From: a virus
Reading direction: 5' to 3' (one strand)
DNA: 38,021 nucleotides
UHGV virus genome: UHGV-0070058
Below, piece after piece: positions 5,380-19,209 of this stretch. The position numbers were made by a program, and so were the translations under genes. The notes beneath the pieces are model-generated. The model did no database searches and was not told the origin of the DNA. It was given only the letters and a program-made list of their open reading frames with translations. How positions within the stretch are numbered: the stretch's first letter is position 1; each line of letters starts with the position of its first letter.

Positions 5380-5500
5380 TAATAGCCATTGCTATTGGTG
5401 GTATCAATACTTATAGCTATTGATTGATGTGTTTTGATATTAACTGTTTGATAGCAAAAAGAATTAATTTTGTGACTTGCATCGCATAGCGATAACTGAA
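5380..5500. promoter_or_regulatory. Putative OL/pL operator-promoter region
   Basis: AT-rich non-coding stretch at the left boundary of the immunity region containing ATTGCTATT-type motifs shared with the cI-cro intergenic region, plus palindromes TCAATActtatagcTATTGA and ATCGCATAGCGAT. Confidence 0.4.
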
Positions 5501-5542
5501 GGGAGGTTGTGGTGGTTTTTTGAACGGTGTGTGATGAGGGGA

Positions 5543-5574
5543 GGCAAAAGAAAACCCGGCACGACGGCCGGGGA
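5543..5574 (-). terminator. Rho-independent terminator downstream of the rex-slot gene
   Basis: On the minus strand, hairpin CCCGGCC-loop-GGCCGGG followed by a TTTTCTTTT tract, immediately 3' of the stop at 5577. Confidence 0.6.
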
Positions 5575-5576
5575 AA

Positions 5577-6440
5577 TCATTTCGCATCTACAATAAATAA
5601 CCTGTTTATCTGGCCTTTTTTAACAGTAGCCTTTGCGGTTATAGTGAATACTGCAGATGGATCACCTTTGGTTGATATATATGCACTAAGAGCTCTAATA
5701 TACGGGTTATTCTTCTTTCCTGCAGCTGGATCGCTAATTTCAGCAGTGATTCTCTTTTTTGAGTCATCACCATCTAAAATTATTTTAGCTGTCATATTTT
5801 GTGCATCAAATTCTGTAAGAAAAGCACGATACTCACGAAGACCGAGAACTTCATCATCATCAAGCCTATCAATTTCAGCTTTATCTCTCTCGTTAACTTT
5901 TAGAAGGCAGCCGTCAACATTTGTTGCAACACTTATCTGATCGCAAGTATTACCAATAGGTGATACTGCCTGCCTTACAGAGGGGCGAAGCTCTACAGCC
6001 ATTCGGTCAATCAAAGAGATCAACTTATCAATGGTTCCAGCATCCTTGTTTCCTAGTGCCTCTATGGCCTTTTCAAGTGACTGCTGCAAAGCTTTCATTT
6101 CATCTTTCTTGTTAGAATTTCTCGCAAAAATATATTGTAGTATTGCGCCAAGTATAGTTGCGGCGATCCCCGAGAACAACTGGTTCTGAGTGGCGAAGTT
6201 AAGAACTGCTTCAAGAGTAAAGCAGTTAGCTTTTGCTTCGCGTGCGTAAACCTTAACTTCCTGATAATTAATGTATTTACTATATTTTTGTGTAACAGAG
6301 AAAGAAGCTGCTGTTGAGAGAACTTTAGAAAAACCCTTTAGGGATTCTCCTAGGCAGTTCAAATCTATTTCATGATTTAAAGCATCTTTTCCGTCATACC
6401 TAAGAGAGATTTTTATATCCTGTAAAGCGTCACAATCCAT
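5577..6440 (-). CDS. Unknown membrane-anchored protein in the rexAB position; candidate prophage-encoded exclusion/abortive-infection factor
   Basis: 287-aa ORF, markedly AT-rich; 66 bp downstream of and co-oriented with the repressor gene; one hydrophobic segment [19 protein letters not shown] at about residue 100; no resemblance to RexA/RexB recognised. Confidence 0.6.
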
Positions 6441-6506
6441 AAATCGCTCTCGTCTAATTCTAATTAAATTTACTATCCCCTAAACGACTCATCAGCACAG
6501 TACTGA

Positions 6507-7199
6507 TTATCCATGTTTCCTGTACGTCTGGGGCATGCTCCCAATAACCTTACCGAAGATGAACACCCGGTTCATCTCGTCTTTCTCGATCGGGTCCCAC
6601 GGTGAGTAGCTCTTGTTATCAGAGATAACCAGCAGCTTATCCTTCATCATTTGCAGGCGCTTTACATGGGCGGTGTCGTCGTACAGAAACGCATAGATGC
6701 CATCACCGTCGAAAGATTTAACCGTGATATCAACGAACAGCAGATCACCTGGTTCGATCGTTCCTGACATGCTGTCACCACGCACGTTAATGATGCGGAT
6801 ATTTTCTGCCTTCCTACCATCGAACATGTGACGAGCATCGTCAAACGAGTACTCAACCGAGCGTAGAACTTCTACAAACTCACGGTTGATGACTCCCGGC
6901 CCGGCACTCACTTCTATATCAAGAACGTCAATCTTGAAGTATTTGGGATGGTTGGCAGTAGGCTTCCCTAATTGTTGACCGTCATTTCTCATCGGGCCTA
7001 TGCCTGATGAGAGCCACTCTGTTCGAACACCCAATGCATTAGCTATTTCAACAATTTTTGTTGAGCCGCGCGCGTTGCCGCTTGTCAGTCTCCAGATTGT
7101 GGGTTGAGCTACGCCAGACGCCTTTGCAAGAGCGCCTTGAGACATTCCAGATTGTTCCATCGCTAGGTTTAAGCGATCAGCAAGAGTTTCTTTTTTCAT
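6507..7199 (-). CDS. cI: CI-like prophage repressor (N-terminal XRE-type HTH + C-terminal S24 LexA-like autopeptidase)
   Basis: HTH segment QGALAKASGVAQPTIWRL; Ala-Gly cleavage site (VSAGPG); Ser (GDSMSG) and Lys (HVKRL) catalytic dyad. ATG at 7199 preferred; the track's 7235 start is a TTG codon. Possibly leaderless. Confidence 0.85.
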   Translation of the reverse strand: MKKETLADRLNLAMEQSGMSQGALAKASGVAQPTIWRLTSGNARGSTKIVEIANALGVRTEWLSSGIGPMRNDGQQLGKPTANHPKYFKIDVLDIEVSAGPGVINREFVEVLRSVEYSFDDARHMFDGRKAENIRIINVRGDSMSGTIEPGDLLFVDITVKSFDGDGIYAFLYDDTAHVKRLQMMKDKLLVISDNKSYSPWDPIEKDEMNRVFIFGKVIGSMPQTYRKHG

Positions 7200-7309
7200 A
7201 AGTTTTAATTTATACGCTTGCGTATTGATGGTCAAAACACGTTTTGCTATTGTTATGATTAATACGCATTGCTATTATTTATTCGTTGCAATACCAATAG
7301 GAATTGATA
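7200..7309. promoter_or_regulatory. Putative OR operator / pRM-pR divergent promoter region between cI and cro
   Basis: Divergent repressor/cro arrangement; palindromes ATACGCTTGCGTAT (7211-7224) and CAAAACACGTTTTG (7233-7246); repeated TTGCTATT motifs. Confidence 0.5.
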
Positions 7310-7537
7310 ATGACAAATCAAACCATTCAACTCGCAATCAGTATTACAGGTAGTCAAAAACGACTGGCAGATCTATGCGGTGTAGCCCAACCCACTGTTT
7401 GGCGTTGGCTACACGGTGGCGGAATTGATGCCCGCTATGTAATGAAAATTGTCTCAGCCACTGGTGGAAAGATTAAACCAGCAGATATTCGTCCCGACCT
7501 CGCACCATTGTTTAACGCGAGTAATTCTGCCGCCTAA
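7310..7537 (+). CDS. cro: Cro-like HTH repressor
   Basis: ATG at 7310 with AGGA Shine-Dalgarno 9 nt upstream; HTH segment QKRLADLCGVAQPTVWRWL; divergent from cI. Confidence 0.8.
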   Translation: MTNQTIQLAISITGSQKRLADLCGVAQPTVWRWLHGGGIDARYVMKIVSATGGKIKPADIRPDLAPLFNASNSAA

Positions 7538-7561: not shown

Positions 7562-8107
7562 ATGACTATGCAACCACTTACATACCAACAGACTAGCGGA
7601 TTTAGCCCGACTGCGGTGATAAATCGTTCTCAAACAAAACAAGCTCCAGGCCACGAAAAAATCCGTGATGCCGTCCGCGCCTGGTCGGCTGCAGATAATC
7701 AGGATGTTGTTGCCGCACTCATTGTGAATGAGTATCGGGAGCAGGGCGGCGGCACCATCGATTTCCCTGATGATGTCAGCCGTGCACGCCAGAAGCTGTT
7801 CCGCTTCCTCGATAACAAATTCGATTCTGAAAAATACCGAAATAACGTGCGTGAACTGACCCCGGCAATTCTGGCGGTACTACCGCTGGAATATCGCGGT
7901 TACCTGGTTGAGCAGGATAGCTTTATGGCTAGGTTGGCTGAAATGGAAAAGGAACTCAGTGAGGCAAAACAGGCTGTCATTCTCAACGCACCACGCCACC
8001 AGAAACTGAAGGAGATGAGTGAAGGCATTGTGTCGATGTTTCGAGTGGACCCGGATCTGGCTGGTCCATTGATGGCGATGGTCACCACCATGCTGGGGGC
8101 AATATGA
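7562..8107 (+). CDS. YdaT-family protein (DUF1019) occupying the cII position
   Basis: Segments EYREQGGG and LTPAILAVLPLEYRGY resemble Rac-prophage YdaT as recalled; follows a Cro-like gene as ydaS-ydaT does. Confidence 0.6.
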   Translation: MTMQPLTYQQTSGFSPTAVINRSQTKQAPGHEKIRDAVRAWSAADNQDVVAALIVNEYREQGGGTIDFPDDVSRARQKLFRFLDNKFDSEKYRNNVRELTPAILAVLPLEYRGYLVEQDSFMARLAEMEKELSEAKQAVILNAPRHQKLKEMSEGIVSMFRVDPDLAGPLMAMVTTMLGAI

Positions 8108-18249: not shown

Positions 18250-19209
18250 ATGATAAAAAAACCTGTGATTGGAATCAGCGGTTGTTTGGCCGGTTCTGCT
18301 GTTCGTTTTGATGGTGGTCACAAAAGAGCTGACTTTTTAATGGACAAATTAGTGGAATGGGTAACATTCAGACCAGTATGTCCGGAAATGGCTATAGGGC
18401 TGCCAGTTCCGCGTCCTGCTCTACGTCTTGTGCGCTCGACGCAAGGAAATATACGGATGTGTTTCAGCTACGACCAGAATGAGGATGTGACAGAGAGAAT
18501 GACAGAGTTTAGTCGTTCTTATATGGACAAATTAAAGGATGTATCGGGGTTTGTGGTTTGTGCTAAATCTCCCAGCTGTGGCATGGAGCGCGTGCGTGTC
18601 TATGATGAAAATGGTAATCGAGGTCGTAAAGATGGAGTGGGACTATTTACGAGCACTTTGATGGAAAAGTTTTCCTGGCTACCGGTTGAAGAGGATGGGC
18701 GATTACATGATCCAGTGCTTCGTGAGAATTTTGTTGAAAGAGTTTTTGCTTTGCATGAGCTCAATCACCTTTACAAGGAGAAATTATCAAGAAGAGAGTT
18801 ATTAGCTTTTCATAGTCGTTATAAGCTTCAGTTGTTGGCGCATAGTCAGGCAGGCTATAAAGATATGGGACCATTTGTGGCTGCAATACACGAGTGGGCG
18901 GACCTTGAATCATACTTTGAGGTGTATCGTGATAAGCTGATGGCGATTCTCAGAAAACCTGCATCACGTAAAAATCACACGAATGTGCTGATGCATATAC
19001 AGGGGTATTTTAGTAACTACTTAAGTACACGCCAGCGTAAAGAGTTGAGTGAGGTTATACTTAACTATCGTTCTGGCACATTGCCTCTTCTTGCGCCGTT
19101 GACTCTGCTGAAGCATTATCTGGGTGAGTATCCTAATGATTACTTGCTTACACAGAATTACTTCGATCCCTATCCGGACGAACTGGCTCTAAGACTGATG
19201 GTAAATTAA
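18250..19209 (+). CDS. DUF523/DUF1722 (YbgA-like) two-domain protein
   Basis: 319 aa; N-terminal Cys-containing DUF523-like region (GISGCLAG...CPE...SPSCG), C-terminal YbgA-like region; GGGAG Shine-Dalgarno. Confidence 0.6.
   Translation: MIKKPVIGISGCLAGSAVRFDGGHKRADFLMDKLVEWVTFRPVCPEMAIGLPVPRPALRLVRSTQGNIRMCFSYDQNEDVTERMTEFSRSYMDKLKDVSGFVVCAKSPSCGMERVRVYDENGNRGRKDGVGLFTSTLMEKFSWLPVEEDGRLHDPVLRENFVERVFALHELNHLYKEKLSRRELLAFHSRYKLQLLAHSQAGYKDMGPFVAAIHEWADLESYFEVYRDKLMAILRKPASRKNHTNVLMHIQGYFSNYLSTRQRKELSEVILNYRSGTLPLLAPLTLLKHYLGEYPNDYLLTQNYFDPYPDELALRLMVN

Follow-up and report, generated by a model that had tools for sequence, protein, structure and literature searches.

A repressor-linked cargo gene in a lambdoid prophage

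The viral genome UHGV-0070058, of which the whole stretch of 38,021 nucleotides was analysed (the window), carries between its repressor gene cI and its putative left operator (OL) a single open reading frame (ORF) of foreign composition, hereafter the cargo gene, which belongs to a family of prophage genes found repeatedly behind very different repressors and which may have an anti-phage role. The gene order is that of a lambdoid prophage, running from int through dam, exo, bet, gam and kil to the cargo gene and cI, and from there through cro, a cII-like gene (YdaT), O and P to the head and tail genes. Since the ORF upstream of the cargo gene contains HTH_3 and Peptidase_S24 domains, it can be assigned to the CI/LexA-type autocleavable repressors; the identical gene is labelled S24 family peptidase in RefSeq. 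An earlier note on this DNA had placed a 287-residue ORF on the minus strand, 66 base pairs (bp) past a CI-like repressor, and had compared its location to that of rexAB; the coordinates and the gap were confirmed (Table 1), and the gene does lie on the cI strand, downstream of cI and ahead of OL and the left promoter (pL). In lambda the slot after cI, which is read from the repressor maintenance promoter (pRM) in lysogens, holds rexA and rexB.

The cargo gene is a compositionally foreign cassette. Its G+C content is 0.384 and that at third codon positions (GC3) 0.295, compared to a G+C content of 0.475 in cI and to values of 0.51-0.53 (G+C) and 0.55-0.62 (GC3) in exo, bet and gam, so that the AT-richness which had been judged by eye (35-40% G+C versus about 50% or more in the flanks) was borne out by measurement (38% versus about 52%). 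The further proposal of a horizontally acquired moron, however, held only in part, because of the features of a Hendrix-type moron the composition shift and sharp boundaries are present, whereas a promoter and a terminator belonging to the gene itself were not found. The hairpin and T-tract noticed directly after the gene do form an intrinsic terminator, which starts four bases past the cargo stop codon and consists of a 6-bp stem made up of G and C only, followed by TTTTCTTTT; its folding free energy of -17.7 kcal/mol (z = -3.3) was matched by none of 200 shuffled sequences. This terminator is part of the phage backbone common to different cargos and not of the cargo, since the homology to phage 4A7 described below extends up to position 5572, so that any inserted cargo would join the transcription unit of the repressor. 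Neither a terminator nor a promoter match was found on the coding strand of the 66-bp gap (6441-6506), and the cargo gene seems to make use of the transcription unit of cI.

About 150 bp past the terminator lies a pL-like promoter together with an operator-like repeat (5380-5399), three further copies of which are present between cI and cro (7236-7254, 7260-7279 and 7293-7309). This arrangement of repeats and promoters fits OL/pL and the right operator (OR), in agreement with the earlier view that the repressor-plus-cargo unit ends ahead of OL/pL, and the layout of OR parallels that of the annotated pRM, pR and operators of phi80. The pRM-like match stops 8 nucleotides short of the cI start codon at 7199, a spacing that resembles lambda, where the cI arrangement is leaderless; as a consensus match it does not in itself prove function. 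Co-transcription of the cargo gene with cI from this pRM-like promoter is most likely. An antisense ORF of 137 amino acids (aa) with a GTG start codon (5527-5940, plus strand), which overlaps both the cargo gene and the terminator, can with near certainty be regarded as a mere shadow of the coding strand, which is AT-rich.

Table 1. Features of the cargo locus and segments of the cargo protein, in window coordinates
Feature	Position	Strand	Description
Putative pL promoter	5407->5379	-	10/12 match to the sigma-70 consensus; overlaps the OL operator-like repeat (5380-5399); repeats D4 and I3 common to OR
Intrinsic terminator	5545..5572	-	stem 5555-5572, T-tract 5545-5554; conserved phage backbone, common to different cargos
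Exchangeable cassette	5573..6507		blastn breakpoints 5572/5573 and 6507/6508
Cargo gene	5577..6440	-	864-bp ORF, ATG start, 287 aa; DUF7946 and DUF7947; phi80 40A orthologue
C-terminal beta-rich domain, aa 165-287	5580..5948	-	predicted OB-fold-like barrel (DUF7947); near-invariant D237-P238, Y247, K270
Helical region, aa 87-158	5967..6182	-	predicted three-helix bundle and short helix; length varies in distant relatives
Hydrophobic helix, aa 88-106	6123..6179	-	followed by basic patch R107/K111/K112; Kyte-Doolittle 19-residue mean, Hessa sum, model
N-terminal alpha/beta module, aa 9-86	6183..6416	-	predicted strand, long helix and beta-hairpin (AlphaFold2 model); motif RYDGxDAxxHxIxLxxLGxSLxG
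cI-cargo spacer	6441..6506	-	66 bp
cI repressor gene	6507..7199	-	230 aa from ATG at 7199; HTH_3 and Peptidase_S24 (Pfam)
OR region	7207..7309		three operator-like repeats; pRM-like match 7235->7207 (-), pR-like match 7250->7278 (+)

The cargo protein as a member of the DUF7946/DUF7947 family

Two Pfam models were matched in N-to-C order across the whole cargo protein, DUF7946 at residues 11-191 (3.8e-55, 187 bits) and DUF7947 at residues 201-287 (1.4e-18, 67 bits), each with a gathering cutoff of 27 bits. In addition, PHROG 5147 covered residues 1-287 (593 bits, 1.5e-178), and protein 40A of phage phi80 (UniProt P14817; phi80 gp45, YP_007947967.1) was found to be 62% identical over its full length (99% query coverage, E = 2e-114). 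Judged by these matches, the cargo protein is not an orphan but a member of the DUF7946/DUF7947 family and an orthologue of phi80 protein 40A. The earlier description of the gene as uncharacterised therefore remains valid for its function, which the catalogues leave unassigned, but not for its kinship, and the same can be said of the family, which is already catalogued, yet uncharacterised. Protein 40A has been known as an ORF since 1988, when the sequence was split into 40A and 40B, and RefSeq names the cargo protein hypothetical or 'DUF7946 domain-containing' (WP_000340376.1), while the literature searched contained no mention of the family, its accessions or its Pfam and PHROG identifiers. 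The label 'acetate kinase superfamily domain' attached to 40A in phi80 was without support in Pfam, NCBIfam and fold searches.

The exact cargo protein sequence occurs on at least 1000 contigs, and 77 of 5426 complete Escherichia coli genomes carry the gene at 99% identity or more. One copy, in E. coli VG1046-3E9 (NZ_CP128594.1 3681489-3683129), is broken by the insertion sequence (IS) IS1A, so that the match, 864 bp in an unbroken copy, lies in two pieces over 1641 bp. When 1.84 billion representatives were searched with a profile, 497 clusters were recovered at E<=1e-3, almost all of them 270-310 aa in length and of one single architecture, and a scan of GTDB with a pattern-based prefilter found 8 loci. 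When the gene was compared to its homologues from Erwinia, Rahnella, Serratia, phi80 and Morganella, the proportion of non-synonymous differences (pN) was 0.09-0.30, whereas that of synonymous differences (pS) was 0.76-0.89, i.e. saturated; the cargo gene is thus a genuine gene under purifying selection.

Outside the family, two weaker matches were obtained with the N-terminal part of the protein. The PADLOC profile PDC-S42 (E = 1.5e-4, 19 bits) was matched at positions 4-113 of 302 and hence not over its full length, and the NCBIfam model LAPAL_fam (NF053583) over its N-terminal 116 of 292 positions with 26.2 bits, below the curated cutoff of 60. Both recur within the family, PDC-S42 in 28 of 98 members (best 3e-8) and LAPAL_fam, at sub-threshold level, in 59 of the 98 (best 1e-10); a remote kinship with PDC-S42 and LAPAL_fam extends over about 115 N-terminal residues.

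An exchangeable slot behind the repressor

The boundaries of the cassette became apparent from phages 4A7 and PhiR47_2, in which the flanking DNA is 90-98% identical to that of the window while the homology detected by blastn ends at 5572 and restarts at 6508. The exchangeable cassette therefore reaches from the repressor stop codon to the outer end of the terminator stem, and it is filled by a single ORF. In 4A7 and PhiR47_2 the slot holds an ASCH protein and a protein of about 355 aa, which in PhiR47_2 are annotated as antitoxin and toxin, GevA/GevT; a literature search on GevT/GevA returned nothing relevant. When E. coli genomes were searched with the joined flanks, both flanks were found at one place in 537 genomes, and in E. 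coli prophages nine or more other cargos, or none, take the place of the cargo gene between them. Among the sampled matches were DUF7946, a HipA-family kinase with DUF3037, an ImmA/IrrE peptidase with DUF4411, a Ser/Thr kinase with a PP2C phosphatase, ASCH with a hypothetical protein, DUF3800, a BamE-like protein and several hypothetical proteins, as well as an essentially empty slot, in which about 160 bp separate the flanks. These comparisons support the view that the interval from the repressor to OL serves as an exchangeable cargo hotspot, and the variety of cargos between the same flanks agrees with the literature, in which the interval between cI and N is described as a mosaic hotspot occupied by rexAB in lambda and by bstA in BTP1 (PMC8585504). 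Whatever the function of the cargo, the sharp limits of the cassette, i.e. the cI stop codon and the common terminator, define a lambdoid cargo hotspot in a clean and searchable way that would allow systematic mining.

Recurrence of the gene behind heteroimmune repressors

A CI-type repressor lies immediately upstream of the gene, on the same strand and divergent from a cro-like gene, at 11 of about 20 independent loci. These comprise the window, phi80, two different Morganella prophages, Vitreoscilla, Neisseria, three Mannheimia loci, a metagenome-assembled genome of Enterobacter (helix-turn-helix domain only) and a 35%-identical metagenomic relative (11-bp gap), and place the gene behind very different repressors in Enterobacterales, Pasteurellaceae and Neisseriaceae. 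The other loci represent different mobile-element contexts or contigs too short for judgement; in these the gene was found past AlpA in an IS-flanked Serratia islet, beside integrases, past DinI-like genes (Rahnella), past a Tlde1-domain gene (Erwinia) and in a Helicobacter prophage. In each of the 45 locus pairs compared, the cargo was much better conserved than the repressor, with a median coverage-normalised identity of 49.5% compared to 15.6% for the repressors. In Morganella, for example, the cargo is 100% identical between prophages whose repressors are 25% identical, and in Mannheimia cargos of 98-99% identity stand beside repressors of 24-37% identity. From this disparity, the gene has evidently been transferred time and again to this one position behind heteroimmune repressors, and it is this repeated placement that constitutes the strongest evidence for selection of what would be a repressor-coupled, lysogenic expression. 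The DUF7946/DUF7947 family, to which no function has been assigned since 1988, is a recurrent occupant of the rexAB/bstA interval in three or more bacterial orders.

In Vitreoscilla sp. C1 the next gene in the slot (locus L009, 6661-8274) encodes a 537-aa SIR2_2-domain protein, and in Neisseria sp. HSC-16F19 a HigB/HigA-like pair (L012, 4019-4564) adjoins the DUF7946 gene in the post-repressor interval, so that the slot can hold stacked cargos. The Serratia homologues (L014, 4921-5843; L015, 1776-2698), which are not beside a repressor and follow an AlpA-like gene in the IS-flanked islet, are themselves followed by two conserved small ORFs of 147 and 160 aa without a Pfam match, possible partners of the homologue in Serratia.

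Predicted structure of the cargo protein

An AlphaFold model based on 22 sequences was mediocre, with a mean predicted local distance difference test score (pLDDT) of 75.6, whereas a second model based on 98 diverse sequences reached a pLDDT of 90.8 and a predicted template modelling score (pTM) of 0.75 (five models, pLDDT 88.9-90.8). In the latter, a strand (residues 9-16), a long helix (27-50) and a hairpin (62-82) make up the N-terminal alpha/beta module, which is the part matching PDC-S42 and LAPAL_fam; helices at residues 87-108, 112-128, 134-150 and 152-158 are followed by a beta-rich region (165-287). The C-terminal half is predicted to contain an oligonucleotide/oligosaccharide-binding (OB) fold, modelled as a five-stranded closed beta-barrel that can be superposed on known OB-folds. 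Structure comparison, in contrast, revealed no solved counterpart of the N-terminal module or of the whole chain: a Foldseek search of the PDB gave no match below E = 0.1, and a sequence-profile search of the PDB sequences returned no solved relative and only coiled-coil noise.

The best-conserved residues across the family are G17, S33 and G36 in the N-terminal module, all three near-invariant, with H23 in 84 of 98 sequences, P161 and G163 ahead of the C-terminal domain, and D237-P238, Y247 and K270 within the OB domain. A catalytic or metal-binding site formed by H23, C73 and C166, which are invariant in close homologues, was considered and rejected because C73 is replaced by Ser in 33 of the 98 sequences and C166 by Ala in 18, without co-variation (Fisher p = 1). 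As a test of topology, mutual information linking residues of the N-domain to those of the C-terminal half showed no excess over chance, such pairs representing 9 of the 40 top couplings as compared to 39% of all pairs.

A possible anti-phage role

We infer that the main role of the cargo gene is anti-phage, an interpretation that we hold tentatively and at slightly less than an even chance, its preferred, if weakly supported, version being that of a sensor with a latent helix. During repression of the prophage, transcription from the repressor maintenance promoter would read through cI into the cargo gene, and the product would be a compact protein with a mass near 32 kDa, composed of the N-terminal alpha/beta module, a three-helix bundle with an unusually hydrophobic first helix and the C-terminal OB-fold, which would shield the lysogen from other phages. 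The OB-fold half would recognise a phage-derived ligand, either nucleic acid or protein, and this recognition would free or re-orient the sequestered hydrophobic helix, which in turn would engage the inner membrane or drive self-assembly, so that infection would be blocked or the infected cell killed. In its most complete form, in which DUF7946/DUF7947 would represent a new single-gene anti-phage family with an OB-fold sensor and a latent hydrophobic helix that moves to the membrane or assembles into an oligomer when the cell is infected, the family being distributed as a plug-in cassette behind heteroimmune repressors, this proposal must be regarded as unlikely. If the gene is a true defence gene, a structurally new single-protein system would be added, and the most widely used cloning strains (DH5alpha, DH10B, TOP10 and other strains with phi80dlacZdeltaM15) would carry an unrecognised phage-resistance determinant, an unnoticed gene that could bias phage-host experiments. 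A candidate defence gene in the post-repressor slot would not surprise a specialist; the context is unusually clean, and the predicted fold is without a solved counterpart.

Several observations weigh against an anti-phage role or against individual steps of the mechanism. No effector domain (nuclease, NADase or pore-former) and no nucleotide-binding domain was recognised in Pfam, PADLOC, NCBIfam and fold searches, and the literature searched contained no experimental evidence for any member of the family. The match to PDC-S42 is weak and limited to the N-terminal third, and the PDCs are themselves unvalidated defence candidates (PMC11514479). Release of the helix is purely conjectural, with a negative Hessa sum in 0 of 98 family members and charged residues inside the helix of many distant ones. 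Lysogens of Lula/phi80, unlike lambda lysogens, do not plate T4 at all and reduce the yield of P1 tenfold, a phenotype to which no gene has been assigned (PMC2885432). However, phi80 cI and 40A are 100% intact in DH5alpha, DH10B, TOP10, NEB 5-alpha/10-beta, XL10-Gold, JM83 and EPI300, and wild-type T4, for which both strains serve as routine hosts, has been propagated and plaqued on both DH10B (PMC4471564) and DH5alpha (PMC7588440). Even in its native setting, protein 40A is therefore not sufficient for the T4 block, and its candidacy as the cause of the T4 exclusion by Lula/phi80 is largely rejected; the determinant probably resides in the part of phi80 missing from phi80dlacZdeltaM15 or depends on the strain background. 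In DH10B the phi80 early region surrounding cI and 40A is complete, and in DH10B and DH5alpha alike the early region is kept while part of the late region is missing. Any defence conferred by the gene would thus be narrow or conditional and, since narrow-spectrum systems are common, the defence hypothesis is lowered but not removed. The phage-exclusion factor suggested in the earlier note hence retains the support of the genomic context, while the plating of T4 on strains bearing phi80 cI and 40A speaks against it, and the cargo gene is best described as repressor-linked prophage cargo and a candidate in a recognised hotspot, neither categorically new nor a demonstrated defence system or exclusion factor.

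Alternative functions

The hydrophobic segment of about 19 residues that had been noticed near residue 100, and that had given rise to the term membrane-anchored, was located at residues 88-106. A single-pass anchor of this kind would suit a constitutive superinfection exclusion at the inner membrane, in which entry of the DNA of incoming phages is blocked as by SieA of P22, Imm of T4 or gp15 of HK97. The Kyte-Doolittle 19-residue mean of 1.85 indeed exceeds the classical value of about 1.6, as it does in 22 of 22 close homologues despite sequence drift, and the segment is directly followed by the conserved basic residues R107, K111 and K112. In addition, its Hessa sum of +1.63 kcal/mol compares to +8 to +11 kcal/mol in soluble controls (same window) and to +4.3 kcal/mol in the signal-peptide core of the window's inverse autotransporter, which is thus less hydrophobic than the cargo helix. 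The Hessa sum is nevertheless positive in 98 of 98 members, a Kyte-Doolittle mean of at least 1.6 is reached in 50 of 108 full-length representatives, many distant members are charged (K, E, D or R) or amphipathic within the helix, and the confident model (pTM 0.75) buries the segment in the three-helix bundle of a compact protein, where G91 and G98 co-vary, with a weak signal, with residues of the neighbouring helices. Moreover, the highly charged N-domain of 87 residues would need to be exported without a signal peptide. While the hydrophobic segment is present as described, constitutive anchoring is unproven, and exclusion by such an anchor appears distinctly improbable; a sequestered, conditionally exposed helix, as in the anti-phage mechanism outlined above, and a helix in the core of an oligomer are equally compatible with the data.

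Alternatively, the cargo protein might modulate the lysis-lysogeny switch or SOS induction of its own prophage, with the OB-fold sensing single-stranded DNA (ssDNA) or RecA filaments and thereby tuning cleavage of the S24 repressor. Its recurrent upstream partner is an autocleavable S24-type repressor (CI-type in the 11 of about 20 loci), the modelled C-terminal OB-fold resembles ssDNA-binding OB domains (RPA, SSB-like), and the Rahnella gene has two DinI-like proteins encoded upstream. In line with such a role, hair-trigger induction has been reported for phi80 (PMC2885432), and Rex proteins are cited as influencing induction (PMC12315714). A parallel would be found in lambda, where RexA/RexB have recently been described as acting in the switch to the lytic cycle. 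Yet hundreds of E. coli prophages combine the same repressor allele with wholly different cargos or an empty slot, and elsewhere an identical cargo stands behind repressors that are 24-37% identical, which argues against a specific partnership of repressor and cargo; about nine loci, furthermore, have no repressor neighbour or lie on contigs too short for judgement. We assign a low probability to this function. An effect on lysogenic conversion with a benefit outside phage biology, for example in stress tolerance, envelope physiology, competition or virulence, would be in keeping with the presence of other non-defence morons in the prophage (the inverse-autotransporter adhesin and an esterase), with the BamE-like lipoprotein that sometimes occupies the same slot, with the name of the nearest NCBIfam family, which is just 'putative phage structural protein', and with the finding that PADLOC detected no defence-specific domain. 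In contrast, where other cargos of the slot could be identified, most proved to be of the toxin-antitoxin or kinase type that is typical of defence modules, and the family is confined to prophages and mobile elements over distant taxa, a restriction that is more readily explained by conflict between phages than by a host-niche trait and makes a conversion gene of this type unlikely.

Other passengers of the window

A second AT-rich insertion was observed at 9800-15062, right after the replication gene P in the ren/nin position, with a G+C content of 0.32 at 9801-10200. It encodes a 1303-aa inverse autotransporter with IAT_beta and Big_1/Invasin_D3 repeats (10071-13982, plus strand), an intimin/invasin-like adhesin, and a convergent 347-aa esterase of the BD-FAE/alpha-beta-hydrolase type (14019-15062, minus strand); it gave no PADLOC matches, and E. 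coli 720632 has a NACHT-domain protein at the corresponding position. The late-regulatory/lysis-proximal region contains an unusual lambdoid passenger (18250-19209, plus strand), whose product of 319 aa combines 2-thiouracil desulfurase and DUF1722 domains. The Pfam matches to 'YdaS_toxin' and 'YdaT_toxin' at the cro and cII positions (7304-7537 and 7562-8107, both plus strand) concern YdaS/YdaT-type genes, which are annotated as cro and cII in related phages despite the toxin-like names of their families.

Comparison with known systems

The closest relative of the cargo gene among named phage genes is that for phi80 protein 40A, with which it shares, besides 62% full-length identity, an architecture of 287/288 aa, the slot between cI and OL/pL and the orientation on the cI strand. 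The immunity repressor of phi80, in contrast, is 23% identical, the prophage backbone differs, and 40A itself is uncharacterised. Similarity to PDC-S42 and LAPAL_fam consists in a length of about 290-300 aa and the common N-terminal module of about 115 residues, but the matches are sub-threshold (19 bits, and 26 bits versus a cutoff of 60) and do not reach the C-terminal half. For the modelled OB domain, the resemblance to CusF/SilF, RPA, YgiW/BOF, Ten1 and the anticodon-binding domains of aminoacyl-tRNA synthetases is at fold level only, at 5-13% identity, and no CusF-like metal-binding motif of Met, His and Trp was identified in it.

With regard to BstA of Salmonella phage BTP1 and its relatives, the likeness lies in a single gene placed right after the prophage repressor. 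BstA reportedly has a KilA-N-type DNA-binding domain, whereas the fold predicted for the cargo protein is unrelated, and Pfam, PADLOC and PHROG searches of the cargo protein gave no KilA-N or BstA-related match. A cognate aba self-immunity element, which is a feature of BstA, was not found for the cargo gene. The bstA gene is described as having its own terminator and as occurring behind diverse repressors in Gram-negative prophages (PMC8585504).

The relation to rexAB is again one of location, downstream of cI and ahead of OL/pL, and presumably of the same expression from pRM. As had been supposed from the start, no relation to RexA, RexB or SieB was detected in Pfam and PADLOC, nor was one to BstA, and the Rex families were absent among the Pfam matches at E<=1 and the PADLOC matches at E<=10. 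RexB is a membrane protein with four transmembrane helices, and RexA is a cytoplasmic sensor; the cargo, in contrast, is one gene instead of two and has a single marginal hydrophobic helix instead of four, so that the organisation of a sensor with a separate multi-pass partner is not reproduced, while an analogy of a sensor with a membrane element is possible within the one protein. A member of neither family, the cargo gene may thus be likened to rexAB and bstA in its mode of working by virtue of its position behind the repressor and its presumed expression logic.

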